The notes under the pieces were generated by a model, which had not been told where the DNA came from, made no database searches, and saw nothing but the letters and a program-made list of their open reading frames with translations. Positions 6,506-44,424 of a stretch of 61,549 bases of DNA are shown in pieces (within the stretch, counting starts at the first letter, position 1; every line of letters begins with the position of its first letter). A program made the position numbers and the translations under genes. Source of the stretch: Mustelus asterias (Eukaryota); the NCBI RefSeq assembly GCF_964213995.1, contig NW_027590347.1:372001-433549 (forward strand). The letters run 5' to 3'.

Positions 6506-6682
6506 CACGTGCTAGTTATGTTAGTTAGAAACAACTAACATAATTCCTCAGTCGGTGTTGGTGTTGTGTTTTGTGTTGGTATTTTATTGATGGCTCTGTG
6601 ACCCTCACGGGATGAGTAATTGTTCCTGATTAGCACAGGAAGCGCGCCCTCCGCTGGTCACTAACTGGAACTCCCAGTCTGC

Positions 6683-7140
6683 AGTTCTTGTCCGGAATCC
6701 GCTCGATCTCTGCAGCAGAGTGTGGGCGGCAGAGCAGATAAATGCGGGGCGCTCTCGGAGAAAAGCACCCCAGCGATATTTAAAGGAACCATTTTGCTTT
6801 TGTTCAAACCAACAGGGAATCAGTCCAGAAAACTTGAGAAGTGCGTTTCCGTGCTGTATAACGTCAACAGACACTTTGAGCCTTCCCCGGCAGACTGGGG
6901 TGTACCAGAACCGTGTTCGACCAGCTGTCGAGTAACTGCAATCCAGTGTTACTGTCTGTCCTTCCTGAACCCTAAATTCAGAAGTACCTGGGGTAGTTTA
7001 TCTTTGCTATTGTTTCCTGCAACAAAATATAGTATTGATTAAATATCTGGTGGAGAACGCTGGGAACAGGCAGTGGCGATTTAAACACAGAATCATTGGA
7101 CAGCAAGACGAACAGTATTAGTAAAGAACACCGGGACAAC
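6683..7140 (-). pseudogene. TCR V pseudogene (clan of the 19.7k V)
   Basis: Acceptor at 7017-7019, frameshifted FR1, WY-type and FIC remnants, degenerate RSS (nonamer ACAAGAACT 6683-6691); leader remnant lacks ATG and donor. Confidence 0.8.
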
Positions 7141-8350: not shown

Positions 8351-9103
8351 TATCATCATTGCATGATTCTAAACCGACGGTGACTATTGGAGCCAAAAGT
8401 AACAAAGAGATCAGATATTCCTGAAACATTTAATCGGTTGTTGCATACACCCACAGAATCCTAGTGAATGTCCAGAACGTATTTGTTTAAACACAGCGTA
8501 TCCCCGAATTGGACTCTGAATGACGGCAACTGACAACATCCCAGAATAATCTGATTAGTCAGAATGTCAACCACCAGTGTCCCACAGAATGAGAAAGGGA
8601 AGCTCCACTGTCCACCACCCCCACCACCAACCATTGACAGTCCTGGATTCGGCAGCAAATCCCTGTCTGCAAATAAAACCCTGATTGGCCCATCTTCTTC
8701 AGCACGAAAAAAAAAGCTGTTTGCAGCTGAAGCTCTGATCCTGCTGACATTGGGTGATTTTATTTTTCTAATCAAATGCCATGTTTTAGCAATTTATTAA
8801 TCATGTGCTTTGGTTAATTGACATTTTCGTTCACAGCCGTTCAATGAGAGGATCAGAGCTCCCACCCTGAGCGGGTGCGGGCTCGGGAAAGGGGACGGGT
8901 TGAACTGAACTGTCGGCTCTCTGTTGGTTCTGGAAACTGTTGGGTGAATGCTTGATCCGAGGTTATTCTGGTTTCTCCTCGCTGTGTTTTAGCAGCTGAC
9001 AGCGCAGCTGCTCAATCTGCCCGCGATTCTAAACAATCCGCAGTAGGCAGCAGCTCCTATCTAGAGTTTTTGTTCGGCGGTGAGAATGTTTTCTATCACT
9101 GTG

Positions 9104-9565
9104 AGACTGAAAGCGCAGTAATAGCCGCCAGCGTCAGTTAGCTGCAGACCCGAGATGGTTAAACTGGTGATTTTATTCTCGATCTGGAGCTCAGCGGAGA
9201 AACGGATTGTAGCAAAACCTGCTTTATCCTCAGTGTCCCAAGAACTTTTCATCACTATAAATTCCGGTTGCTTCTCTGGGCGCTGTCGATACCAATGTAA
9301 GTAATAATTGGTGGCTGTGGTGTCATAGCGACAGATCAATGTCACCGCTTCTCCTTCTGTCTTACCATCTGAGGGGGAACCGCTGAGTGACAGAATCTTC
9401 ATTAGTCACATCTGAAAAAACAAATAAACATAATCAAATGGAAACTGGTCAGGTCAGAGGCTGGAAATATTTGACCCATACGTGAAATAAAGGATGAAAT
9501 GTATTTCATCCCCAATTACCAGTCAAGAATGCTACCCACACAACCCAGATGCTGAGCCGCCGCAT
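9104..9565 (-). pseudogene. TRAV/DV segment with a 1-nt frameshift in FR1
   Basis: Leader 9565-9520 (MRRLSIWVVWVAFLT), V exon 9411-9104, RSS CACAGTG(9097-9103)/23/ACAAAAACT. The spliced frame reads EDSVTQRFPLRW* because of one extra base near a C5 run; the rest of the V is intact in the shifted frame. Confidence 0.85.
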
Positions 9566-10654
9566 TGCCTCTATCCGCGCTGTAAAGGGGAGTTGGGTAT
9601 TTGACAGAATCTGTTTTAAACCCCGCCCCCAGTAATCTGCCGGTGTTGCCTTATGGTGAGCCGGAAACGAGCACAAATTGCTGAGTTTGGTCACATTTTC
9701 TCAATAATTCTGATAGCTTCAGCATCAGGATAGTGGTAATCCTGAATCCAATTAAATTACACTCGGTTAAACATTTTTTTCACTTAATTCCAGCGTCACT
9801 GTTAAGACCAGTGCTTATTTGTGTATCCTTGATATCCTCGGGAAAGATGTTGGTGAGCCGCCGCCCTGAAACACTGCTATTCACCTGGACTTTATCAACA
9901 TATAGAGGGGACAGCTGTAGTGTATCAAGGTTTTCGGATAATACAAAGTGACGTTACATAGTCAGCTGTAGAGAGAGACAGAAAGTCGCTGCCAAGCGTT
10001 ATGTGGAGATTATGTGACTAGTCAATTGGAGCCATGAATAGAAAAATATGCTATTCAATTTGCAGGGAAGAGAAAGGAAGTATTAAACAGTGTAATTAGT
10101 GGGAAATTATTCCTTGCTGGTGTGCAGAGCGATTTGTATGTTCTTTTATACAAAACACAGACATTTAACCTAAAGATTGAGCCAACAGTTAGGAAGGATA
10201 ATTGGATGTTGCCCTTTATTCCAAAGCTGACGATGTTCAGGAGAAATTAAATTAAATACTGTTGCAATTGCACTGAATGTTGGCGATATCTCAGCTGGAG
10301 AACAGTGCACAGCTTTAGTAATTAAGAAACCGATTAAAGGAAATTATTTACTTAAACGTCACTTCTGTCCTGCTCCCCGACACCACTGCGTATTTCTCTG
10401 CCACAAATATAGAGGAAAAAGAAAATCCATAGAAAATCTCATATAGAGATATCCAGTTGGTTCTCACCAGAGGGCGCTAAAAGAGTGCTAAAAGGCAGCG
10501 ACAATTGAAATGACACAGCGAGCGACAAAGAGACCCTCCAAAAATGTCTTTAAAAAGAAAACGACACACATATAAATAGGTGAGAATCAATTCCGGATTT
10601 CAGTGCATTAGGATCACTGAACCTCATAAATACAAGTATGCAGCACAATTGTCA

Positions 10655-11225: not shown

Positions 11226-11832
11226 CTTTCCAAATTCAGTCAAACATTTCTATTTCTATACTGAAATCTTCTCACCCCGAAGGCCAACATACCATTTGTC
11301 TTTTTTTAAAGAAGGATAGGGGGATCTTTTGCAATTAAGTTTGGCTGCAATAATGACCAGTCCTTTACCCATCGCCCCAGTCACCTTCCCGATCAATGTT
11401 TACAGACTATGTTTGGTCAGAGTGTATTGCTGGGTAAGAGGCAGATTATAGATAATCGATAGATTTCAAAAGAAGCAATCGTGGAAACAAACAGAAAAAG
11501 TGCCCCTCTCCTCATGTGCACTGTACTTCAACACGTCTTCCCAATGCTTGAATGTTTATTCTTTTCCAGAATATCAGATTGCTGGTGGTAATTAACAGGC
11601 CAGACTTTCATCCGGAGCTCCTTTCTCTAACAAGAGAGCAACTTATTTTCGCTGTCGCTTTTGGGAGCGGCGGTTTGGTCCGTGGTTAATTTGGTTTCCT
11701 CTGTGTGTTTTTGAGCGTCTGACTACGCGCTGCTCATTGTTGCATTCTCCAGCGATTATGCACAAGGAGGCACAGACTGGAGCTCCTATCCAGAGTTTCT
11801 GTACGGCAGTGAGACTGCTTTCCATCATTGTG

Positions 11833-12290
11833 AGACTGAAAGCGCAGAAATTGACAGCAGTGTCAGTCAGCAGCAGATTCGACATAGTTAAACTGGTGTC
11901 TTTATCCCCGGTCTGAAGCTCTGCAGAAAAACGCATTTTAGCAAAATTTGTTTTATCTCCAGAACCCCAGCATTCTTTTCACATTATCAGCTCGGGCTGT
12001 TTATCTGGTGCTGCCGGTAACAGTATAATTAATAGCTGCTCTCTGGAGTACCATATGAAAAGGTGAATGTCACTGCTTCTCCTTCTGTCTCCATATCTGT
12101 GAAGAGCCGCTGAGTGTCAGAATTTCCATGTGGCAGGTCTGAAAGGAAATCGCACAGCAACAGATGAGATTAAAAGTGTGCTAAAATGTAAACAATAAAT
12201 CTTTGAATTTCAATCAAAGATGAAATTGCTCCTTCGGCACTTACCTGCCAGAAATGCTCCCCACATTACCCAGAAGCTGAGTAACCACAT
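11833..12290 (-). pseudogene. TRAV/DV pseudogene (family of 9.1k/45.5k)
   Basis: Leader 12290-12245 (MWLLSFWVMWGAFLA), exon from 12138; first Cys replaced by Phe, in-frame TAA in CDR1; RSS CACAATG(11826-11832)/23/ACAGAAACT. Confidence 0.88.
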
Positions 12291-14036
12291 TGTCACTGTC
12301 CGCTCTGTAAAAGTGTAGTTTGATATTTGAAGACACCCGTTCTAAATCCTGCTCTCAACTCACTTCCTGGTGTCACACGTGGTGCTGTGACACTGGTAAA
12401 TTTTGAGCAAGCTATCAATAAACCCCAAGCTGGATTACAATCAGTACACGCTTATCCACGAAACATTTTAGTCAGCCTTCATCGTGTTCTCTTTCAGCTC
12501 CCTATTCCCTTCCATACGGAAGACAAAATTGTAAATTTTACACCAAGTGTGGGATGATTGGAAAGAGAAATGAAACAAAGAGAGGCTGCAGATATTATTT
12601 GGATGGAAAAAAGGTCTAGTCTTAGAAACACCGTCGGATTGTCAAACACAGTGATGACTGCAACATGGAGTAACGTTTAATGAGTCCAGGTGGTCAAATG
12701 CAGTCATAAGCAGTCTTTTGAAATATGAAGAGAAACATGGTTCAATGTAATAATGTCAAAGAGATGATCCAGACCAATAAATAACATAATTCTAGTACGA
12801 CTATATCAAAGAATCAGCTGCACATAATCGAATGCATTGTATTATTGCGCTGAACTATGGTCCTGGATAATATATCAGTTTGCCTGACCCCTCAAATCAT
12901 CCCATTAATCAACAATTTACTAAAAACCAATCATCTTTAAAGACATTGATTATTCCCATTGCGAACAGAACAGCTAACTTCCCTTGATAGTCAATGGCAC
13001 TATGCACAATGTATTTTTTCCCCGCCGTCAATATGTTGAACTGAGCCCCCTAATGCCACGGTTGTAGCAGCACTTCAGAGGTTGAATATTCTGTGGTGAG
13101 TTCTTCACCACATGATCCGTAATGCGGGCTATGGCGTGTGACGCCCATTGGATACACTATAGAAAGTCGCCAGGCCTTCTTCGTATGTACCTGCCATTAC
13201 CATGCTCTGAATCACTCAGATGGGGAGCGGGTGTATGGACGACATCCACTTCCGGATTCTGCATGCAGTGCTGGCCCTTTAGTATCTCGGCGGCCTAATG
13301 TTCTAACACCCGAGCTAACTCTGCCGGTGAACCTGCAGTACATGGGCTGCTGTTGTTGAGGAAGGCTGCTCACCACCACCTTCTCAGTATGAACCTGAAA
13401 GTTGCACTTAGCACCTGCCGTTTTAGCGAATCGATGTGAAACAATGCAGAAACAACGGCTCAGAACCACAAACACCAGCCGTTATCTTTCTTGGGTCTTT
13501 TTACTTGTTCCTTCATCCACTATTAATATTTGCGTTCACAATTTAACATTTTTCGGTTTTGTTCTTATTTTTTCTCCATTTACTTTTTCGTCACCCGAAC
13601 TTTCTCATAGTTTTATTCTCTTTCTGTTTTTGTAATTTGAAACTTTTTTAACAGTTGTCTTGTATCACTTGTTCAGCACATTTTCCTTAAGCAAGAGTGC
13701 TGAGACAGGGAGGGAGGGGTGCATTACTCAACACAAACCCAGCCCGATGCTCTATCACAGTCTGTCTCTCCTCCTCCGCCAACTGAATGATGCTCTGAGT
13801 GATGCGGCCAGCTGCCGCAGGAGGAAATGGAAAATCTATCCGACAACACAATCTCCCGTTAAAACCCAGTTAACACAATCGCTGCGTTATAACAGCAGCC
13901 GAATTGCACTAGGCACGAGCTCGTCTTCTGCTATAATCTTTATGCCAACCCGTTTCTCACCTTACTGCAACAGATTACAGCAGTAAATAAAACTGCTATT
14001 CCAGGGTTATTTTTTGGGAGAGTCATAATAGATCCC

Positions 14037-15870: not shown

Positions 15871-17309
15871 CTGCCTATTGTGGCCAGAGAGCCGCCAGCA
15901 ACAATGATTTCAGCAACAGTAGCGGCAGTATTAGCTGCAAGGACAATTGGGACAATGAGAGTCAAACATGCTGCAATTGATGTTCAAGTTATAATCAAAA
16001 ACAGATGCAGGCTATAAAGTTGCTGCAAGCTGTGACCAGAGAGAACACTTGCCGCTAAAATGATTTTGCTTAATTAACTTTCATCAAGCTTACTCCTCCA
16101 AATATGGTTTACATACATTCCCTAAAGCAAAACTTTTGATGACAGAGTTTTCTGTGGGAAAAGCATACAACAAAATGCAGGATGGCAGTTATTTCGCCCA
16201 AAACAATAAATATAAACGACCACGGTAAATTCTGTGCGTGAAATTTGTTTCGCTTGCTCTTTGTAGATGGGAAAATGAATCATAAAGAGAGAGACAGAGG
16301 GAGAGTGTGTGCGTGTCCTTGTGTGTGAGGGAGTTCAAAGTAACCTTCAAATACCTGGACTCCGCAATCTCTTTATTCCTGGATCAGTGTGGCAACCCTG
16401 TCTGACAGAGAATTAAACATTCCCACTGTTTTCTGTGTTAATAAAGTTTCTAACATCACCACAGCGGCGACACTGGAAATGAGCTTCCTTGGGTTAGAAA
16501 GCGCTTTAGGACATCTGAAGTCTGTAAAAGACATCAATCAAAATCTTTACTGCTGTTTTCGTCTGAAATATCTTAATGGAGATTAAACTCATTGTCCTCA
16601 TGTTTCCACGGGCCAGAAAAGTTTATTTTTAATTTCAATTTTTTTATTTCAATCCGTTTCTTTCCCGGATTGGGTTAATGAGTGGCCACCACTTCCTAGG
16701 ATTTCCCGGATTCTGTCTCCAGTCGGTTCAGAGATTCTTTCCGCTCCAGAGGACACAGGCAGTCTGGCAGGAATAAGAATCCGGGAACTTACCGAGGAGA
16801 CAGTGCAGTGCTCAGGGAACGCTGCACCGTCAGAGCGGCCAGCCTCTCGGTGACCTGTTCAATCGGGGGCACCGTGTTCCCTCTCAGCTGGAGGTGACAC
16901 ATCACATGGTCACTGTTTCCAAGAAGAGCAGAGAAATGTCCTGTTTGATATCTGTTCACCAATCACAATGACTGAAACAGACAGAACACTACAATGTTAC
17001 TGAATGAAATGTCACACTGAGTCCAAATTGGCTGCTGTGTTTTCCACAGTGACAGGGAAACACTTTGGGACATCAAACTGTACAAATAGTCAAGTGTTCA
17101 TTCTCTAAGTTGCCCTCATTGTTTTAGTTTGGTAATATATTTATAAATAATACATATATATATATTAGAATTAAAAGTTTGAGATACCAGCACGATTTCA
17201 GGTTCCACATCAGACTCACTCTGATCACAATCTTTGCCTAACGCTCTGTTATGTTGAGCGACGCTCTGACAGTTTTTGTACAGGTTCAGCCCAGCTCTGT
17301 GTCTCTGTG

Positions 17310-18194
17310 GGTCTCAGTGCGCAGTAATAAACCCCGGAGTCTGCCAGCTCTGTTTTAGACACTTTCAGCGGGACGGTACGTGTTGTATCATTGAGTTCTA
17401 CTGAAAAACGGTCCCCTTTGGATCTCCCTGTGTTCCCGGTGTATTTATTTGTCTGCAGCAGATATTCCATGGATCCACTGGGATACTGACGGTACCAGTA
17501 AAGATAAAAGCTGTTGCTTGTAGCTGTGTAATTACAGAGCAACCGAACATCATCTCCTTCAGTGCCGGTGACTGCAGCCGCTGTCTGTGAAACAGAATCT
17601 CCTCGGGAATGTCCTGGAAGAGTCCAAAGAAATATTAAATTAAACATTGTGATTTCACCCCGTTTCCCCCAAAATTTACCCGTGATCGGCAAAAATAATC
17701 TGAGAGAGAAATCAGAGAGTAAAACAGAAACATATTTCTCACAGTTCAGTGGCTGGAATGGGAAGTTTTTGTGGCGATTAAATAAAACTTCCACCATAAA
17801 CATTCTGCTCTTTCTAACGGGATCAGTTCCTCGACTTCAGTCCCTGTAACTGGAAACTGCTCACGGTCTGTTTGAAGTGTGATGTTTGCCAAAGTGGTTC
17901 ACTGGTATCAGAGGAGCTGGAATCTGAGCCCAACTCATTCTCTATCAATCCCTGGGGGAAATGTGCCCAATCCCAACAGTGTTCAGTGTTGAGACCAGAG
18001 AGATCCAAATAACTTTTCCATGTTTAGATCAATCCGTTCCCTCATCACCGACCCCCTCCCCCTCGCATTGAAGGAACTGCCTGACAGAATATAGTGTGTG
18101 GTAATGATGTGTAACACAGACTTGAGCAACTTGTGAAATTACCGGTTAACAGAGCTGCCGCTGTGAGGAATAAATACCGAGTAACAGGAGACAT
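17310..18194 (-). CDS. TCR alpha/delta V segment, intact
   Basis: Leader 18194-18143 (MSPVTRYLFLTAAALLT), V exon 17613-17310 (GDSVSQ..LLCNY..YWYRQ..VYYCALRP); RSS CACAGAG(17303-17309)/23/ACAAAAACT. Confidence 0.93.
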
Positions 18195-18459
18195 GTTTGC
18201 AGAGAGCTCGGGGCGGATCTGACCAGAGCGGGTGGGAGATGTCATTGTTTCAGTCAAGAGTTGAAAGAGGCGGAGTCACATCCGGGTCCCTGTGGATTGG
18301 TTCACTGCTGGAAACGTCATCAGATGACATCCAATCGGCTTCAAGCTCCTTTGTTCTGCAGTTCAACCAATGGTCTCACAGCTCCTTTATCTCCAATTCA
18401 CCCCATAGGCGGAGAGACGGAAGGAACAAAGTGAAGTTGGCCATCCCACGACAGGGGAT

Positions 18460-18682
18460 TATTTTCCTCTTCAACAGTTATTTCATGAACCGACCGGTCC
18501 CCTGAGTGTTGATGGGTCTGTTCTGACATGGAGAATGACAATGTTCATCCCTACAGCAACATGTCAAGCAGTTTGTTATCAATCATGTTTGGGATAGCAG
18601 CTACAGTGCGGGGGAGGATGAATTTTTAGTTGAAACGTGTACTTCACAAGTGATAGAATAATGAAGAGTCTGATATTTCCAT
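18460..18682 (-). pseudogene. Truncated V relic (leader plus start of FR1) of the 25.6k family; paralogous relics at ~27122-27350 (+) and ~48710-48932 (-)
   Basis: Promoter, leader and exon start align by eye with 50114-50500 (e.g. GTCAG|AACAGACCCATCAA...GTTGAAGAGGAAAAT vs GTTAG|AATGGAGCCACCAA...GTTAAAGAGGAAAAT). Confidence 0.55.
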
Positions 18683-19664
18683 ACGATCTTCCCTCAATTT
18701 GTAACTTTGCCGCGTGTGAAATCCTCTTTCAGAGAGAAAGTATAGCTTGCCACCCCATTGGACTGCTGATCCAATCGGTGCCAAACAGGGAAAAGCAGCA
18801 AAGGTCAATATCTACAATAAAATCTCTAATAAAACAACACAGATGAGGCAGGTCAGAGTGAGAACAACACAGGAAAGCTGTGGGTGTGGCTGCCATAGGC
18901 AGTGTGGTGAGAGGTAGAATTTATCTGCAAGGAATTGAACTCAATAACACTATCGCATTGGAAATCATATAAATTTGCCTGTCTGTAGGAGCGGCAGCTG
19001 AATGTTCATTCCATAGCGCGGACCAGCAGTCTCGCACCAGGAAGGTCAGGGTTAGTAAATGATCCAATACAAAGCGGAATCTTCATCAGTGATGGAGATG
19101 GACAGTGGGACCGAATAGCTGAGTAGCTGGATTGGAGAGGTTCTCAGTGTGCTTGTGAGGAAAATCACTACATTGTTAGGGCCAGGGGTGGGAATGAAGT
19201 AGCTGGTCTGATTATTGTAACAGAGGAACACTGAGTTGCGAATTGTGTCAGAAAACATTTGACAGACATTCAAAATGAGAATGAACATTGATGGCAACTT
19301 GTTCTCAGTGATTGTTTTAAATAGCACAATGACAACCTTGCGAAATGTATATGCCAATATAAGCTGTCCCTTAGGCAGCAAAATACTCTCATCATATAGA
19401 CCCTTTGGTCAAAGAGACCTTGAAAAGGAGAGTGAAGATGGGGAAAGTGCTGCACAATAATTCACACAGGCAAGAAAATGTCATCAAAGGTTGAAGCGTG
19501 AGTTAAGGAACTGTAAATGTATTTTTAGTATAGTTGCAAGTTAAAAATTCAACTGTGGCTCAGCCGTTCGTGTTGAGTGTTGTGTTTTGTTTTGATATTT
19601 TGTTTATGACCCTGTGACTATCACTGTCGAGACAAAATAATTATTTCTGTTTATCAGTGTGGGA

Positions 19665-25635: not shown

Positions 25636-26133
25636 ATGGTGAACTATCTCACTCCGATCCTCATCATTCTCTCACTTCTCAGTAAGCATTTTCTTCCCAG
25701 TAAAACTACATGCTCCTCCTGACAGCTGTAACCCAGATATTCTTGTTGATAAAACAATAGTGATGATGATAATTGTATCGTTTAATCTGAGGCTAACTCT
25801 GATTGTCATATTGCTGTTGTTTCTGTTAGAAAGGAGCCACCAAGACGAAGTGGAACAATTGGATCCTGGAATAAAGGTTAAAGAGGAAAATGATGTCACA
25901 CTAACCTGCGCTTTGAAAACAAGCGATTCCAGCCCTAATGTGTACTGGTACAGTCAGCAGCCCGGGAAAGCTCCAGTGTACATGTTTCAGCTTATTGGAG
26001 AGAATGTGCAAAAGAATCCCGACCTCAATGATCGGTTTTCTTCCAAATTTGATAAAAAGAACAAGACTAGCGAGCTGACGATCAGTAACACACTGATTTC
26101 CGACAGCGCCGGGTACTTCTGTGCCATGAAGCC
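25636..26133 (+). CDS. TCR alpha/delta V segment, intact
   Basis: Leader 25636-25681 (MVNYLTPILIILSLL), V exon 25830-26133 (LTCAL..YWYSQQPGK..GYFCAMKP); RSS CACACTG(26134-26140)/24/ACAAAAACC(26165-26173). Confidence 0.92.
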
Positions 26134-31454: not shown

Positions 31455-31957
31455 CCTCCATCGCACAGAAATAGGTGGCGGTGTCTGTCAGCCGAGCTTC
31501 ACTAACATTCAGAACGCTGCGTTTCTCTGAGAAACTGTACTGAGCCGTGATCCTGCCCTGATCGCTGGTACCGCTCACCAGGTGCTGCACGGTTCTGTCT
31601 GGACTTTGTCTGTACCATTGCAGGATCTGTACAGCTACTGTGGCTGAACAGTTCAACGATGCAGTGGCTCCCTCGGTAACAACCACTGACTCCGGAGACT
31701 GTGATAGCTCTTCACTGCCAGCGGCATCTGGGAAGAATATGTACATTTGCAGTAAGAACATATCGTACTATAATGTAGCACAATAAAGTACCATTGTATT
31801 CACAATTCGAGATAATACAATAAAGCTGAGTACAATTTAACAGAATCTAACATTGCTGAGGTGTGAAATATTGCTGTCAGAAATAGTGACCACACTTACA
31901 CTGAGGGAACAGTAAGAAATCCAGCAAAATAATCACCAAAGTGAAGCTCAGGAACAT
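31455..31957 (-). CDS. TCR alpha/delta V segment with very short CDR2, intact
   Basis: Leader 31957-31900, V exon 31727-31455 (LNCSA..QWYRQSP..TYFCAME); consensus RSS CACAGTG(31448-31454)/23/ACAAAAACC. Confidence 0.92.
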
Positions 31958-32157: not shown

Positions 32158-32683
32158 TGCGCATGCGGCAGAGCATCCGGTATTGTGACGTCAGAACATC
32201 CGGTATTCTGACGTCAGAACATCCGGCATTCTGACGTCAGAGCATCCGCGGCATTGGAACCTCATAGAATCATAGAATGCCGACAGTGCAGAAGGAGACC
32301 ATTCGGCCCATTGAACCCGCACCGACCACAGCCCCACCCAGGCCCTCTCCCCGTAACATCACATCTTTACCCCGCGAATCCCCCTGACACGAGGGAGCAA
32401 TTCAACATGGCCAGTCAACTTAACCCGCACACATTGGGACTGAGGGAGGAAACCGGAGCACCCGGAGGGAACCCACGCAGACACGGGGAGAACATCCAAA
32501 CTCCAGACAGACAGTGACCCGAGGCTGGACTCGAACCGGGGGCGCTGTGAAGCAGCTGTGCTAACCACTGTGGCACCGTGCCGCCCAACGTCAGACGTCA
32601 GAACATCGTGCATTGTGACGTCGGAATGCGGATATGTGTGGCGTCAGAATGTGTGACGTCACCCTGTAGCCCATGTGACGTCA
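32158..32683. promoter_or_regulatory. Tandem CRE (TGACGTCA) array plus NRF1-like TGCGCATGCG, upstream of the 31.5k V and split by a SINE
   Basis: Perfect CREs at 32186, 32209, 32232 (23-bp period), 32654 and 32676, plus imperfect ones in between. Confidence 0.6.
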
Positions 32684-35881: not shown

Positions 35882-36595
35882 GTTTGTCTGTGATCTTTCA
35901 GCTGAATTAAAGAACTCTCAACAGAAATTTGGTTACAATAAAACTGAATTTTTAACTTCAATTTTGAATTCATCTTTGATGCAAAATCTCCAATTCATTG
36001 TCTCCCAAGGTAATGGGTTCTCATCAAGTGGAGGTGCCTTTGCCAGCTTGGGTACATTCACAGGATGGAGGATGATCACTCCAGTGGCTCGGCAACAAGA
36101 GCCAACACCGAAAACAACAACCCACAACCAGACCTGAGAACCACTTCACTTGTGGCAAAACCTGCCTCTCACGGATTGGTCCCTCCAGCCATCAGTAACA
36201 GTGAACCAGAGGGTGCGTGGGCCTTCAGGGTCTCAGTGACCAGGAGAGAAAACAATTCTGCACACAGGGGCGTGAGAGCTGAACCCAGACAGAGTGGAGG
36301 GAGGGAGAAAACTGAGAGTGGAGAAAAGAATTGGTGGAGAGGGTGAGATGGGTTTGGATTTCAGCCCAGGGACGGGGGAGAGTGTGTGAGATGGGGATTT
36401 ACAGATTTGGGGCAAACGAGAGGAAAAAATGTTCCAAAAAAAAACTAGAATTATCTGTTCAGAATTTCTATCCTGGACCGACCGTGATTAATTTTGTAAA
36501 CTCTTTTTCCAGGTATGTCTTGCAGACACAGCAGAGTGGCTCTCACAGTCTGTGCAGGTTTTTGTATGGGACCTTCCTGTGTTTGTCACACTGTG

Positions 36596-36844
36596 GCTCA
36601 CAGCACAGAGATAGGTGGCAGTGTCTGTAACTCCGGCGTCTCTCACAGTCAGGGCACTGAATTTGTAGCCTCCACCGTACCAATGTATGTTGCTAAGTGA
36701 AGTGGTCGTGGTGCAGTTCATGGATACGGTTCCCCCTTCACTAACAACCTTCCGCCGAGGAAGCTGCATCACCTCATCTGCTCCAGTCACCCCATTGCAG
36801 GTCAGAGTGAAACACAGCAAACAGAGTCTGAAAATTCGGAGCAT
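36596..36844 (-). pseudogene. Intronless leader-V segment with 84-nt in-frame internal deletion
   Basis: ORF MLRIFRLCLLCFTLTCNGVTGADEV..NC..HWY^GGGYKF..TYLCAVS; consensus RSS CACAGTG(36589-36595)/23/ACAAAAACC. Confidence 0.85.
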
Positions 36845-37357
36845 TTTTCAGATCGTATGAAATTTCTGCTGAAGCAGTTGTCCGGGGAGTTCAGATTAGA
36901 ACCAGGACCTGGGTTTAATATTCGGAAGAATTTACAAGGAGTCAAACGCCTGCTTCGTGTCCAACTGAAGCGTCTCTCTGTCGAACTGATGAAAGAAGCT
37001 GAGACTCGGGTTTTATCCGCCCACATTCACTGGCATCGATTCTACTGGAATCGGAGATGAAGAATTGAAGCCGGAATAAATAAACCCCATCAGTGACCCC
37101 ATGTTTCCGGTTACAAATCTCTTCCCACGTGTCTAACTAGGGAACCATTCGCCCTATCAGAACACTGAGTGAACCCAGCTCGGGGTGAATCCATTCACTG
37201 GCAGACAGTTCACCAGCTGCCAACCCCACAGCACCCCCGCGGACACAGGGAAATGCAGTGAGAGCATCCCGAGACACGGCAGCAAAATATACAGGGTGAA
37301 GTTTGGAAAGGGTGTCTTCAAATATCCAACTCCACTTTTACAGAGCAGACAACAACG

Positions 37358-37562
37358 ATGCTGCTACTCAGCATCTGGATTGTGCGGGGAACATTCCTGA
37401 CAGGTACTTATGGACCAAACGGAATTCATATTCACTTTAATTTTACTAACTTGTTTTTGAACTGAATTTTACGGATTCAGTCGGTCTGCTCTGTTTCCGT
37501 TCGAACATGTTTTTCTGATCTGGGTCATGGAGATTCTGTTACTCAGTCGCTGTCCTCAGAAT
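37358..37562 (+). pseudogene. Truncated V (leader plus ~45 nt of FR1, acceptor mutated)
   Basis: Leader 37358-37403 MLLLSIWIVRGTFLT; HGDSVTQSLSSE then homology ends. Confidence 0.8.
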
Positions 37563-37930
37563 AACAGACAGATTTTTAAACTGTCTATCACACTTTCCAA
37601 TCTCTTCCATTTCTATTTCAACAGTTTATTCATTTTCTGTCCACTTCTCCTATGATAACTGAACTTTCCTATGTTCTGTTTTCCTCTCACTCAGTCTAGT
37701 TTACATGTTCCCTCGTTCCTCTTCTCCATCTGTTTTCAACTATCTTCATTTTAACGGGATTTTAATAACTAGATTGTATGTTTTATTTTGTGTTGCGCTC
37801 ATTTCCTTTCTTTACGGATTTTTTTTTGTAATCACATCACTCACTCTACCGATACTCCAGACACAGCAGAGTGGCTCTCGCAGTCTGTGCAGGTTTTTGC
37901 ATGGGCTCTCCCTGTGTTTGTCACACTGTG

Positions 37931-38263
37931 GCTCACGGCGCAGAGATAGGTGGCAGTGTCTGTAACTCCGGCGTCTCTCACAGTCAGGGCACTGAATTTG
38001 TAGCCTCCACCGATTGAGGCTGTGATCCTCTCGCGTTGATCGGTTTCTCTTGTGGCCATCACCAGATGCTGGGGTGGCTGATTCGGGGACTGTCTGTACC
38101 AATACAAGCTGTTAAACGCAGTGATCGTGGTGCAGTTTATGGATACGGTTCCCCCTTCACTAACAACCTTCTGCCGAGGGAGCTGCATCACCTCATCTGC
38201 TCCAGTCACTCCCGTGCAGGTCAGAGTGAAACACAGCAAAGAGAATCTGTAAATTCGGAGCAT
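37931..38263 (-). CDS. TCR alpha/delta V segment with leader and V in a single exon, intact
   Basis: Continuous ORF MLRIYRFSLLCFTLTCTGVTG-ADEVMQ..INC..YWYRQSP..TYLCAVS; RSS CACAGTG(37924-37930)/23/GCAAAAACC. Confidence 0.88.
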
Positions 38264-38774
38264 TTTAAAGATCATATGAAATTTCTGCTGAGGCAGTTGT
38301 CCAGGGAGTTCAGGTTAGAACCAGGACAATGGTATAAAATTCGGAAGAATTTACAATGAGTCCAACACCCGCTTCAGGTCCACCTGAGGCGTCTCTCTGT
38401 CGAACTGATGAAAGAAGCTGAGACTCGGGTTTTATCCGCCCACACTCACGGATCGATTCTGCTGGAATCGGAGATGAAGAATTGAAGCCGGAATAAATAA
38501 ACCCCATCAGTGACCCCATGTTTCCGGTTACAAATCTCGTCCCACGTGTCTAACTAGGAAACCACTCGCCCTATCAGAACACTGAGTGAACCCAGCTCGG
38601 GGTGAATCCATTCACTGGCAGACAGTTCACCAGCTGCCAACCCCACAGCACCCCCGCGGACACAGGGAAATGCAGTGAGAGCATCCCGAGACACGGCAGC
38701 AAAATATACGGGGTGAGGTTTGGAAAGGGTGTCTGCAAATATCCAACTGCCCTTTTACAGAGCAGGCAAAGACA

Positions 38775-39235
38775 TTGCTCAGCACTTGGGTTGTTTGGGG
38801 AATATTCGTAACAAGTAATTGTGAACCAAACACATTTCATATTTACTTTAATTTTACAAACCTGATTCAAAATTAAATTTTAAGTATTCAGTCGGTCTGA
38901 TTTGTTTCTGTTTGCGCAGGTTTTTCAGATCTGAGTCATGGAGATTCTGTCACTCAGTCGCTGTCCTCAGAATTAAAGACGGAAGAAGAAACGTTGAGTT
39001 TAACCTGTATCTATGATATTACAATAATCAACTACGTGTTATCCTGGTACCGGCAACACCCAGACACACAGCGTATATTTATATTGAGGAAAAACTCGAT
39101 ATTTGGTGAAGATAAAGCAGATTTTGCTAAAAGCCGTTTCTCTGGAGAGCTTCAGACATCGAGTAAATTCACCAGTTTGACTATCTCTGGCCTGCAGCTG
39201 ACTGACGCTGCCTTGTATTACTGCGCTTTCAGCCT
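38775..39235 (+). pseudogene. TRAV/DV with open V exon but no leader ATG and a defective heptamer
   Basis: V exon 38929-39235 is open (LTCIY..SWYRQ..LYYCAFS); leader ending at 38814 has no in-frame ATG back to TGA at 38676; RSS CATCGTA(39236-39242)/23/ACAAAAACT. Confidence 0.82.
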
Positions 39236-40124
39236 CATCGTAATGGAGAGTAGTCTGACCGCTGTACAAAAACTGACTTTAACTATAGGTTGAACCGTGT
39301 CTGCTGCGGGTTGCACAGAATCGTGGGTAGATGCAGCCACAATGTAACTGTCAGCCACGCAAGAATCCTCATTAACCTGGGATCAGCCCAAGTGTTTCCA
39401 GTATCCTGCCACTTCAGTCATTGTGTCTCTATGAGTCTGTGAGATCTCTCAGTGGTGAGCTGGCTGATTTTGAAAGGAAACACCTCGAGCGGAGCTGCTT
39501 TCAGCACCTCGATCGTGGAACGGCTGCTCTTTTCCAGATGGGAATGCGGGAATGAAACCCTGCTCTGTAAATTAGCAGCTGCAAATTCTGGAATGCTCAT
39601 AGTAACAAAAACATTCCAGCATTCAGGAAACACTCTGAAGTTCACTGGGGGAATTCTATTCTCAATGTTTATTTTAAAGATCGCAGTCACTTCCTTGTGC
39701 AATCTCTTCATTATGGATACACTTTCTCTGAAGCAGCAAAACTCTCGTCGGGTCAAATAAACCCAGGGAACAGGCGGCGGGAAAAAGGCTTCAAAACCTG
39801 TTGGGGATTGAGTTGCTGAATATTAGACAGACACGGAAACTGGATCAAATGACAATTACTAAACTAAAGAGATCAAATAGATTGAAGAAGATCAGCGACA
39901 GTACAACTGCGAGTTGAAAGTAATTAAGACAATTCCTCAAAGTTCCTTATCTCTTGTTGAGGTTGTGTTTTGCTCTGATATTTTAGGAAGGCACCTGTGA
40001 TTCTCTCAGTGCAGAGTGAATTATTCTTTCTGTTTATCGGTGCGAGAGCACCCTCTGCTGGTACCTCACTGGAACCCCAGTGTGGGGTTTTGTCCGGGAA
40101 CCGCTCTATCTCTGCAGCAGTGTG

Positions 40125-40543
40125 GGCTCAATGGCACAGAAATACACAGCGCTGTCGGAGTGAAGAGCCCCGCCTTATTTAAAAGAGCGGTTTTGTTTCC
40201 TTTGTGCAAACAGCAGAAAGTCTGGCAAATCTTGAGACGAATCTCCCGCGCTGCATCCTCATTGAGTATTTCGGACCTTTTCTGGTAGACGGGATGTTTC
40301 AGAACAGAGTTGGTTCACGATAGGTTGTTGACTAACGACAGTCCGGTATTGTGCTCTGTCCTTCCTGAATTGTTAATTCAGAAGGAGCCTGTGACAACGA
40401 ATCATCGCTATTGGTTCCTATAACACAAATACAGTGTTCCAAAAGTCAGAAATTAAACACAACTCCTGGATAACACACTGACTGAACAGAGACTCGCCAG
40501 ACAGCAAGACCATTATTACCAGTAAGGAATAAGGGGGACACAT
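40125..40543 (-). pseudogene. TCR V pseudogene (clan of the 19.7k V)
   Basis: Leader 40543-40498 with GC donor, exon from 40417 with in-frame TAG and TGA; RSS CACACTG(40118-40124)/24/ACAAAACCC. Confidence 0.87.
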
Positions 40544-41929
40544 GGTAATTCCTTTAGAGTTCGACAGAAAAGTACAGGTTATTCTCGATGTATTGATTCT
40601 TTTAACCTGAACCTTTTAACTGTAACCCAGAACAGAATGTGGTTTCACTAACTCAGAAACTGAGGTTGTTTTTCAGGGATACGTCTGGCTGTTCTGTCAG
40701 TGCTGATCGAAGTGGCGCACCAACAGATGAGAGTCGGAGAGAATTATTTAGTCTGATTGCTTCGCTTTCTCTTTCTGACATTTTCAGGATTTCCGCCTCG
40801 CTTTTCTTGTCTCTGTCAGTTGTTCGTTCTGTCGCTCTTTTCGAAGTGTCATGAAAATGCGGAGTACAGAAAATCTAACTTGTCTCAGAATCTTATTCAA
40901 AAAATCCCGATAAGAAGTACTCTGTTAAAAGTAGCAAAAATATTTCTGTATTTCACAGGTAAATTTGAAATGACAACGGTTCGGCAAAATGCTTAATTCA
41001 GTGGGAATCGGAGCAAAATCAATCCCCTCGGCAGGCGGCACAATAACAGTTGAAATCTGCAAAGATTCATGTTGATTTGAATTCGTTTCATTCATTCTTT
41101 CTGGAGTGCACATTGGATAAACAGAATGAGCTATCAAGATGCAAAACAAGGAAAGCATTTATTCCATCTTCATAGTTATCTAAAATGAAGTGTGTGTTAC
41201 TGGGCATGATAATAATCATCTGCTGACATTATTATACATCGATGTTAAAATCCTGTAATTTATTCGGTCGCGCTGGCAAAATTATATCGTCCAGGTATCA
41301 TTAGCAACTTAAGCTTCAAAGAGCTTGGTACATCAAAGTGCAGCAACGTTTACCTACTATAATTTTGGATGGAATTTACATCTGATAACTACATCAAGTG
41401 TGTACATTAATCCCCAGATGCAATCGCCAGGCAATATCTCCCATGGGCAATGGGGAACAAAGTTCGCATAGAGTGGATGGTGACAAAAGGGAAAATGCGC
41501 CACCCCGACCTCCTGCTGCAAACTTTCATCCCTGACAATGTTATTCAATATTCACACTTCAGCAACCGGGTCCCAGGTCCAGCCATCGAGTGACTGAACC
41601 TCTCTGTGACTCACAGCGCCTGCAGTAAGTGAAAGCCGCCAGCAGATGGTGATATTGTATTATTTTAGTCACAAGACAGTGAAACTCCCGTTTCAACTCA
41701 CAGTTAGATTTTCTGGATATCAGTTTGACTGGAACAGTGCTGTTCCAAACTACCACCACCATCCCAAAGGTAACTAGCAAAGTGCAATAAATGCTTGACT
41801 CGGCATCGAAGCCCACACTCGGTAAGATTAATTTTTAAATGGTTTATTTTGGGGGCATTTGTGGCATCTCCTCCCCCAGTGGCCCAGAGTGAGGCAGAAT
41901 TGCTATTAGTTTCACCCTGTGTGAGCTGA

Positions 41930-44424
41930 CCGTCGCTTGTATCACTTTCTCAGGGTTCCCTTTGGTGTCACCAATGGGGTCTCGGTCTTCCAGCGTGCTA
42001 TGGACCGAATGGTGGACCAGAACGGGCTGCGGGCTACCTTCCCGTACCTGGATAATGTCACCATCTGCGGCCATGACCAGCAGGACCACGACACGAATCT
42101 CCTGAACTTCCTACGCACTGCATCTCGCCTGAACTTGACCTACAACAGGGAGAAGTGTGTGTTTCGTACGCGCCGTTTAGCCATCCGAGGATACGTGGTG
42201 GAAAACGGGGTCATTGGCCCTGATCCAGACCGTATGCGCCCCCTTTCTGAACTTCCCTTGCCTGCTAGTGCAACAGCACTGAGAAGATGCTTAGGCTTCT
42301 TCTCTTATTATGCACAGTGTGTTCCCAACTACGCGGATAAAGCCCGTCCGCTCATTAAGTCCACGACTTTTCCCTTAACGCCAGAGGCCCGATTGGCCTT
42401 CGATAAATTGAAAGCCGACATCGCGAAAGCTACGATGCACGCTGTAGACGAATCCATCCCCTTTCAGGTGGAGAGTGATGCATCTGATTTCGCCCTGGCC
42501 GCCACACTTAACCAGGCGGGCAGGCTCGTCGCATTTTTTTCCCGCACCCTCCAAGGCCCCGAAATTCGGCATTCAGCGGTGGAAAAGGAGGCCCAGGCCA
42601 TTGTGGAGGCCGTCAGGCACTGGCGCCATTACTTGGTGGGAAAACGGTTCACCCTGATCACGGACCAGCGGTCCGTGGCGTTCATGTTCAACAACACGCA
42701 GAGGGGCAAGATCAAGAATGACAAGATCTTGCGGTGGAGAATTGAACTCTCCACCTATAACTACGACATCATGTATAGTCCAGGGAAACTCAATGAGCCC
42801 TCGGATGCCCTCTCGCGTGGAACATGCGCTAGTATACAGGAGGACCGTTTGCACGCCCTCCATAATTACCTGTGCCATCCTGGGGTCACTCGGCTCTCCC
42901 ACTTTATAAAAGCCCGCAACCTGCCTTACTCGGTGGAGGACGTCAGGTCAGTAACAAGGAGCTGTCGGGTTTGCGCGGAATGCAAACCGCACTTTTACCG
43001 ACCTGACCGGGCACATTTAGTCAAGGCCACTCGTCCCTTCGAGAGACTGAGTGTCGATTTTAAGGGCCCCCTTCCTTCAACAGATCGGAATGTGTACTTC
43101 CTCAATATCATTGACGAGTACTCTCGGTTCCCTTTTGTTGTTCCCTGCTCTGATACATCCGCTGCCACAGTTATCAAGGCATTCCGTGATCTCTTTACCC
43201 TGTTCGGGTACCCTGGCTACATCCATAGCGACAGGGGCTCGTCGTTCATGAGCGATGACTTGAGGCAATTCCTGCTCTTCTACGGGATTGCCTCTAGTAG
43301 GACCACGAGCTACAACCCTAGGGGTAATGGACAGGTGGAATGCGAGAATGCTACAGTCTGGAAGGCTGTCTTACTGGCGTTGAAGTCAAAAGGTCTTCCA
43401 GTCTCCCGTTGGCAAGAGGTGCTCCCTGATGCGCTCCATTCTATTCGCTCCCTCCTGTGTACGGCAACCAACGCTACTCCCCATGAGAGGATGTTCTCAT
43501 TCCCTCGAAAGTCTTCCTCGGGGACCTCATTACCGTCTTGGTTGACGTACTCAGGACCCGTCCTCCTGCGGCGACATGTAAGGGCCCGCAAGTCCGACCC
43601 GTTGGTCGAACAGGTCCATCTCCCCCACGCCAACCCTCAGTATGCCTGTGTGGCATACCCTGACGGGCGAGAGGAGACGGTCTCGATCTGAGACCTGGCG
43701 CCAGCAGGGGATGTAGCAACCCCTGTCGCTCCCATACCCCCTGTAACAAACCCTTTATCTCTTGTTTCTTCCTCGAACACGGCGCGGGCAGCATCGGGAC
43801 CATTGCTTAACCATTTTACTCCCATGTACAGCTTGCCTGAGCCCAGAAGATGGTCGCCACCGCAGGGCGTGTCAGGATCCCATGGACTACCGTCACCTCA
43901 GGGTCAACCGGCCTGTGAGTCCGTGGAAGAACAGCTGGATGCCGCCTTGGGGAGAACGCCACCGCTAGTGCCTACTCCGGTGTCACCGCTGGTATTGAGC
44001 AGGTCACAACGACGGTGCAGTCCCCCTGACCGTTTGAACTTATAGACTGCTGACACTTTATTCTGTTTTTTGTACCCCACCGGCCTTTGTTCTCAAAGGA
44101 GGGGTGAATGTGGTGAACCATCGTTGGTTCCCACTGGATAGTGCTGAGCCAGGGGCTGGCCAGTACTACAAGGATGTACATATGTTACTGTTGGGTTGTG
44201 CTATTGTTACTGTTGGGGTTAGGGTGGGGTTGTTACACCTTTGTACTGTAGTGTTGTGGCACATCCCAGTCGGGCTCCGCCTCCTGGGAGAGGTATAAGA
44301 GTCCCTGCTCTGGCCGGGACCCCTTCAGTCTGGGATAGTGTATATAAGTTCTGGCAGCTTCGTTACAGTAAATAAAAGCCTTTCATTTACTGAGCTTCAG
44401 GCCTCGTGTTTGAGTAGCGCATCA
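41930..44424 (+). mobile_element. 5'-truncated Ty3/Gypsy LTR retrotransposon (RT-RNaseH-integrase, PPT, 3' LTR)
   Basis: pol ORF, polypurine tract ~44095-44108, LTR 44109-44424 (TG...CA, TATAA at ~44294, AATAAA at 44371). No 5' LTR or gag. Confidence 0.92.
41937..43691 (+). CDS. pol: Gypsy pol fragment (partial RT, RNase H, integrase)
   Basis: VPFG..FQR..YLDN (RT); SDAS..EKEA..TDQ (RNase H); H-HPG..C..C zinc finger and VDFKGP..DEYSRF..HSDRG..GNGQVE (integrase). Confidence 0.9.
   Translation: MYHFLRVPFGVTNGVSVFQRAMDRMVDQNGLRATFPYLDNVTICGHDQQDHDTNLLNFLRTASRLNLTYNREKCVFRTRRLAIRGYVVENGVIGPDPDRMRPLSELPLPASATALRRCLGFFSYYAQCVPNYADKARPLIKSTTFPLTPEARLAFDKLKADIAKATMHAVDESIPFQVESDASDFALAATLNQAGRLVAFFSRTLQGPEIRHSAVEKEAQAIVEAVRHWRHYLVGKRFTLITDQRSVAFMFNNTQRGKIKNDKILRWRIELSTYNYDIMYSPGKLNEPSDALSRGTCASIQEDRLHALHNYLCHPGVTRLSHFIKARNLPYSVEDVRSVTRSCRVCAECKPHFYRPDRAHLVKATRPFERLSVDFKGPLPSTDRNVYFLNIIDEYSRFPFVVPCSDTSAATVIKAFRDLFTLFGYPGYIHSDRGSSFMSDDLRQFLLFYGIASSRTTSYNPRGNGQVECENATVWKAVLLALKSKGLPVSRWQEVLPDALHSIRSLLCTATNATPHERMFSFPRKSSSGTSLPSWLTYSGPVLLRRHVRARKSDPLVEQVHLPHANPQYACVAYPDGREETVSI

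Follow-up and report, generated by a model that had tools for sequence, protein, structure and literature searches.

A shark TCR V-alpha family with leader and V in one exon: probable in-place loss of the leader intron

The split leader passes as a hallmark of antigen-receptor genes; it is said to occur in all of them in the excerpted text of a 2025 paper (PMC12227049). An exception is treated in excerpts of a 2024 paper (PMC10972964), which calls it unique: chicken TRAV1 and most TRGV1 genes carry leader and V in a single exon, 'uniquely' so in the chicken. Marsupial TCR-mu V-mu-j also lacks the leader intron, and retrotransposition has been proposed for it (excerpts of PMC2275272 and PMC6170632). 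The supporting V-delta of NAR-TCR, a TCR V of cartilaginous fish, is likewise unusual at its 5′ end, as it is leaderless; it bears a cysteine in CDR1 (excerpts of PMC1845163). The shark genes described here match chicken TRAV1 as excerpted: leader and V lie in one exon, unrearranged, the RSS is kept and the V is a V-alpha. V-mu-j, the other precedent named in the original prediction, shares the missing intron but is, according to the same excerpts, germline-joined to D and J and without RSS, whereas the shark genes are unjoined and able to rearrange. Unlike the excerpted supporting V-delta, they bear their own leader and no extra cysteine.

This architecture is apparently unreported in sharks. 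No description of single-exon TCR V genes in sharks turned up in our literature search; later nurse-shark locus papers (reportedly Deiss 2019 and Ott 2020/2021) lie outside its coverage, and an earlier description is possible. The trait is not mentioned in the excerpts of PMC5278385, PMC10322711, PMC2193156, and PMC12529555. In supplement 3 of Ott 2018 (PMC5931798, in part), none of 73 of the 447 rows resembles the family by eye—the compared rows include no aV8 or aV11 and no leaders.

The window analyzed here—61,549 nt of Mustelus asterias, assembly GCF_964213995.1, contig NW_027590347.1, positions 372,001 to 433,549 of the forward strand—reads as a TCR V gene array of a cartilaginous fish. 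It holds 19 V-type ends on both strands (7 on +, 12 on −), and the relatives of its V genes are shark and chimaera TCR V sequences. The V genes (9000–57800) stand in both orientations, so that some would rearrange by inversion, and inverted duplications reach 2.8 kb (16289–19094 versus 29509–26711). Table 1 gives the coordinates of the two single-exon genes, here called copies A and B, and of their surroundings; other V genes of the window are named by their approximate position.

Table 1. Features of the two single-exon V genes and their neighborhood (window coordinates)
Feature	Position	Strand	Observation
Copy A, intact single-exon TCR V-alpha gene (leader and V)	37931..38263	-	110-aa open frame to the V end
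Signal-type leader of copy A, 21-22 residues	38198..38263	-	gapless alignment to the leaders of rearranged P0006 and P0153
Site matching the phase-1 leader intron of other V genes (77 nt before Cys1)	38211..38212	-	copy A: intron absent, AG absent
23-RSS of copy A	37892..37930	-	heptamer perfect; nonamer with 1 mismatch (GCAAAAACC)
5′ UTR of copy A, continuous with the ATG at least this far	38264..38350	-	RNA contig 38261-38320
Likely promoter of copy A	38407..38663	-	copies A and B 96.9% identical; UTR only 86.7%
Copy B, with the single-exon start of copy A and an in-frame deletion of 84 nt at about 36677	36596..36844	-	likely pseudogene
23-RSS of copy B	36557..36595	-	perfect consensus
Duplicated unit	36677..37572	.	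89% identical to 38096-38983; contains the intronless V and promoter, plus the 5′ part of an intron-containing V lying head-to-head on the + strand
Related V gene with an ordinary 172-nt phase-1 leader intron (31.5k)	31455..31957	-	tree neighbor of the single-exon family, weakly supported (83/48)
V exon of the head-to-head neighbor of copy A	38929..39230	+	intron-containing, own ATG missing; splicing control

Copy A is, by its predicted function, a functional-type TCR V-alpha segment with leader and V in one exon. Its frame is open and its V-set domain (Pfam 2.2e-10, 41.1 bits, cutoff 26) retains both cysteines and the conserved tryptophan; many TCR alpha chains are among its best PDB matches, with antibody chains intermixed. 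The leader, whose cleavage site was predicted by eye, shows two basic residues, a hydrophobic core, and small residues at −3/−1; charge and hydropathy fit a signal peptide, and DEVMQ lies near the mature N-terminus. The RSSs of both copies consist of a CACAGTG heptamer, a 23 spacer, and a nonamer, and that of copy A adjoins the V end directly, with no germline fusion to D or J. Exact matches to the perfect RSS occur three times in the window, against 0.00 expected; one of these belongs to copy B, at 36595. Upstream, no out-of-frame ATG is found within 240 nt of the start of copy A. Its likely promoter bears what we take to be a GC box (−178), GATAAA (−173), an initiator-like element (−145), an ETS-like site (−263), and an E-box (−285).

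The comparison set comprises the 13 other V genes of the window that combine an ATG with an open V exon and an RSS. All 13 possess an L1 exon followed by a phase-1 GT donor, and in each the AG falls exactly 77 nt ahead of the Cys1 codon; the leader introns span 78–555 nt. At this site, copy A reads CACGG/GA and copy B CAATG/GG (the slash marks the junction), neither with an AG. A filter for hydrophobic L1 candidates found none within 1.5 kb upstream of A or B; the same filter overlooked the genuine L1 of the 46k gene, which was identified by hand. The original prediction is thereby borne out on most points of gene structure: leader and V read continuously and without stop in both copies, all other intact V genes carry a phase-1 leader intron—the related 31.5k gene among them—and both copies keep a 23-RSS (at 37930 and 36595), which follows the V directly and shows that they are not copies of a rearranged transcript. 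It missed the internal deletion of copy B, described below. The open frame itself is a weak argument, since an in-frame ATG plus a hydrophobic run arises from the T-rich intron end in 7 of the 13 spliced genes (14k, 17k, 26k, 28k, 31.5k, 34k, and 57.7k); hence, the case is carried by the absent acceptor, the homologues, and the RNA contigs.

Copy B reads without stop from its ATG at 36844 via a hydrophobic leader into the V and retains both cysteines and the tryptophan. Its deletion, however, removes 28 core residues (about 57–84 of copy A: FR2, CDR2, and the start of FR3), and its Pfam V-set score of 24.1 bits falls under the cutoff of 26. Copy B is thus likely a pseudogene, a tandem duplicate disabled by the deletion, which leaves one intact family member in the window. 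The deletion is known from this assembly alone; no joint matching it is listed in the run contigs compared with 37750–39300. Between A and B, codons 45–54 around CDR1 hold seven amino acid-changing and no silent differences, compared with none and two in FR3, and this diversifying pattern suggests that copy B was functional before the deletion. A run of A that follows the RSS of copy A is missing from copy B. An intron-bearing V lies head-to-head about 500 nt from each intronless V (37358–37572 and 38770–39270, +); the partner of B is truncated and that of A is without ATG. Such pairs possibly share a bidirectional promoter.

The family extends to other sharks. An exhaustive search returned three proteins that match over the whole length at 61–63%, and profile searches returned four more. 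Two come from rearranged receptor chains, P0153 (UPI0001F848B5) and P0006 (UPI0001F848D4), which start with the 21-residue leader of copy A. P0153 is a nurse shark V-J-C alpha chain containing SKGLLSTN, a peptide listed for nurse shark C-alpha (PMC5931798, in part). The family V is hence used in a rearranged C-alpha chain; this is shown for the family and applies to copy A itself by homology. P0006 joins a V of the single-exon family to J and C identical to the named nurse shark TCR beta P0156; this alpha-family V on a beta J/C marks either a trans-locus rearrangement or a PCR chimera. Four models of Chiloscyllium punctatum (GCC41311.1 and GCC20497.1–GCC20499.1), known from proteins only, bear the same leader. 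The nurse shark chains and these models are of the same V family as copy A, 53–63% identical and equal in leader length and motif; unlike germline copy A, they are cDNA-type proteins or unnamed gene models, and no account of a single-exon structure for them turned up. P0004 (62%; JGI/IMG, 1001-bp contig) reads leader, V, RSS, and a tail like the 3′ flank of copy A in one ORF. IMG gene calls are unspliced, and P0004 would therefore be a second intronless germline copy, known from its protein. A word-index search with P0001 alone confirmed none of five candidates, and none of 52 pattern matches from a metagenome contig scan was confirmed.

The tree (47 rows, 92 columns, deep branches poorly resolved) omits the broken V genes along with copy B, the near-copies 34k and 57.7k, and P0044 and P0157, in which the pattern failed. 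On it, the eight family sequences form one clade with support 100/98. The clade takes in carpet sharks, and the single-exon trait is likely an old feature of the family rather than a local event, a point that the original prediction missed. In a more distant V, P0099 of Scyliorhinus torazame (GCB75380.1), a leader of 22 residues precedes DEEV and the gene model continues through an RSS; by its sequence, it could be another single-exon case.

Seven sequencing runs from three studies match the region, none of them on record as RNA; four (X1, X2, X3, and X6) were aligned to 37750–39300. The tables of X2 and X3 are identical and were counted as one data set. Its contigs depart from the genome at the acceptor of the head-to-head neighbor, with leader exon-like letters, and again at the V end of that neighbor, with J-like letters. 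These departures mark X2/X3 as spliced, rearranged RNA; the missing cover over promoter and RSS is a weak hint in itself. Two contigs run ungapped through the leader–V junction of copy A: 38074–38263 (190 nt, 16 differences, 52 letters on the leader side of the intron position) and 38074–38259 (186 nt, 18 differences, 48 letters). A third, 38261–38320, has a loose end that resembles the window upstream (shuffle p = 0.0075), and the contigs in copy A end at its V end, 37941. No splice joint in copy A is listed in X2/X3, a single data set of contigs, which can drop rare splice forms; every candidate acceptor is crossed, including GGAGCAG/ATGAG, the acceptor whose use would, by the original prediction, have spoken against a single-exon gene. 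At about 91% identity, the contigs derive from another species or from paralogues and not demonstrably from gene A. They support transcription of close relatives of copy A with unbroken leader and V. X1 and X6 behave as DNA, covering RSS and promoter, and none of their listed matches extends 31 letters to both sides of the intron position.

The origin of the trait can be approached through the leader itself. From ATG to Cys1, copy A counts 43 codons, equal to the spliced 17k, 28k, and 47.5k genes, with spliced neighbors ranging from 38 to 45. In nine of nine family members, the residue at the junction (G, A, E, D, or V) has a G-initial codon, which fits a phase-1 junction and is compatible with an origin from an exon end as well as an intron end. 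We scored 36 peptides, as 17-residue hydrophobic stretches, against seven family leaders. The top five are all leader exons or spliced leaders, among them 17k (z = 4.07), 47.5k (z = 3.35), and the chimaera cDNA AFK11483.1 (z = 2.40), compared with z = 1.58 for the best of 11 intron ends of the window. The family leader is thus closer to true leader exons than to intron ends, which favors in-place loss of the intron. The V family of 17k and 47.5k is distant from copy A in the tree; the third member of this V family, 28k, reaches z = 0.02, and the leader of the 31.5k gene z = −0.07. At the DNA level, the first 52 nt of copy A are 20–44% identical to leader exons and 21–35% to intron ends, which does not separate the two origins. 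Loss of the intron, as originally predicted, gains support from the ATG-to-Cys1 length and these leader scores, and we consider it the probable origin, to be preferred over capture of intron sequence.

Such a capture would have proceeded by mutation of the acceptor AG and decay of the old L1, with the T-rich intron end and its in-frame ATG becoming the new signal peptide. The gene would stay single-exon and functional all the same, and only its origin would differ. Several traits speak for it: the same seven of 13 spliced neighbors hold an in-frame ATG and hydrophobic run in their intron ends, the junction CACGG/GA of copy A is one base off a canonical ACAG/GA acceptor with a pyrimidine-rich run before it, and a branch point-like CTCTGAC lies upstream of this junction. 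Also, the second-codon-position pyrimidine fractions of 0.71 and 0.65 are like those of intron ends and below most L1 exons (0.67–0.94). Against this, the family leaders score above any intron end when compared with true L1 exons, the leader has the length of a spliced leader, neither a relic hydrophobic L1 nor a conserved donor was found upstream, and promoter-like motifs lie about 145–285 nt upstream of the ATG. We therefore regard capture as unlikely.

Within intron loss, two routes come into question. The first is recombination with the cDNA of a V transcript that had been spliced but not rearranged. It had been proposed from the start and is plausible, although it is indistinguishable from a deletion by DNA repair. 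In the mouse thymus, unrearranged V genes are transcribed (PMC2190937), which makes a spliced, RSS-bearing template conceivable; expression in germ cells would be required. If the intron was lost, we would put this route slightly above an even chance. The second is a repair deletion guided by a short G/G or CAG repeat at the splice sites; microhomologies of 2–3 nt occur there in six of 13 spliced neighbors and make it possible as well, at a little short of an even chance.

A link to the avian single-exon lineage, as originally suggested, would mean that one ancient single-exon V-alpha lineage of the first jawed vertebrates was kept in sharks and birds. The shared architecture of chicken TRAV1 (excerpts of PMC10972964) fits this, and a forced shark–bird clade, at a cost of 15.9 lnL units, is not rejected by the AU test (p-AU 0.065, with the birds represented by one long-branch sequence). 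On the free tree, however, the shark family nests among shark and chimaera V genes, while the bird domain P0123 (Numenius, TRAV1-like) groups with a gecko V. Chicken TRAV1 differs from the family in V lineage on the free tree, in its QVQQ motif—absent from copy A—and in an unrelated-looking leader; the score of the bird leader on the family profile is 0.3. The nearest chimaera family, that of Callorhinchus milii AFK11483.1, has V sequences 41–48% identical to the shark family, a G-VSG junction that matches G-VTG, and a leader sharing the M-x-R-x-Y start with an L1 two residues longer. Unlike the shark family, it appears to keep the leader intron, as judged from proteins: the cDNA leader and several model N-termini differ before the same G/VSG junction. 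We consider a common lineage very unlikely. Motif and leader point to a likely independent intron loss, and independence of the shark loss from that in birds is, in our view, very probable.

Retroposition of a spliced germline V transcript to a new site accords with the absent intron, with the retained RSS, which a sterile transcript could carry along, and with the LTR-retrotransposon pol-like ORF at 41925–43691; yet copy A sits within the V array and has a promoter-like region that is conserved, the run of A after its RSS is missing in B and apparently in P0004, and signs of an insertion would by now be too old to recognize. We regard this as highly improbable. Equally improbable is that the genes are spliced from an upstream exon after all or represent leaderless supporting V-delta: copy A does have an ATG at −256, a phase-1-compatible GTGAGT donor at −186 (70 nt after that ATG), and AGs at 38208 and 38196, but the RNA contigs run through all candidate acceptors, which largely refutes such splicing, the rearranged chains begin with a contiguous leader, and copy A has a leader and no CDR1 cysteine. 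The exon between −256 and −186 was rejected, as a hydrophobic leader is not encoded there and both its reading frame and its donor have changed in B.

In-place loss hence remains our preferred account. As a whole, it states that the family is common to carpet sharks, that a shark ancestor lost the leader intron of the family in place, by a single and nearly precise event, and that copy A works as a V-alpha, and we hold this to be reasonably likely. Transcription of copy A would start about 145 nt upstream, RAG would join it to a J via the RSS, the transcript would need splicing at the J-to-C introns only, and cleavage of the leader would follow residue 21 or 22.

An old, expressed, and rearranging exception in the most basal TCR-bearing lineage shows that antigen-receptor genes can do without the leader intron and have likely lost it more than once. 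A missing leader intron alone is also no sign of a retroposed, rearranged gene—an argument used for V-mu-j. The family would be overlooked, or its members called pseudogenes, by annotation rules that insist on an acceptor AG or on a leader exon of its own; conversely, T-rich intron ends can mimic single-exon leader–V genes. The single-exon structure implies no new function. Should the shared shark–bird lineage be true, the split leader would not have been universal to the original antigen-receptor V genes.

The remainder of the array bears further observations. Intron 3′ ends that encode an in-frame ATG and a hydrophobic run lie at 25830, 28184, 34020, and 57386 (+) and at 17613 and 31727 (−), the longest run, in the 26k family, measuring 27 residues; possibly, these are annotation decoys or alternative unspliced leaders. 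The RSS spacer is 22 bp long in the 19.7k gene, and spacers of 24 bp occur in the 26k-type family as well as in two others, the positions of these unusual RSSs being 26134, 34324, and 57690 (+), 49810, 52037, and 40124 (−), and 19741 (−). Broken or partial V genes with frameshifts, stops, or as remnants are found at 6540–7100, 9100–9600, 11800–12330, 40100–40560, and 54860–55050. The pol-like frame within the array is 588 aa long, on the + strand, and shows RT, RNase H, and integrase by eye. Upstream of the 31.5k V gene, at 32180–32245 (−), stand three tandem TGACGTCA (CRE-like) motifs with CCGGATG.
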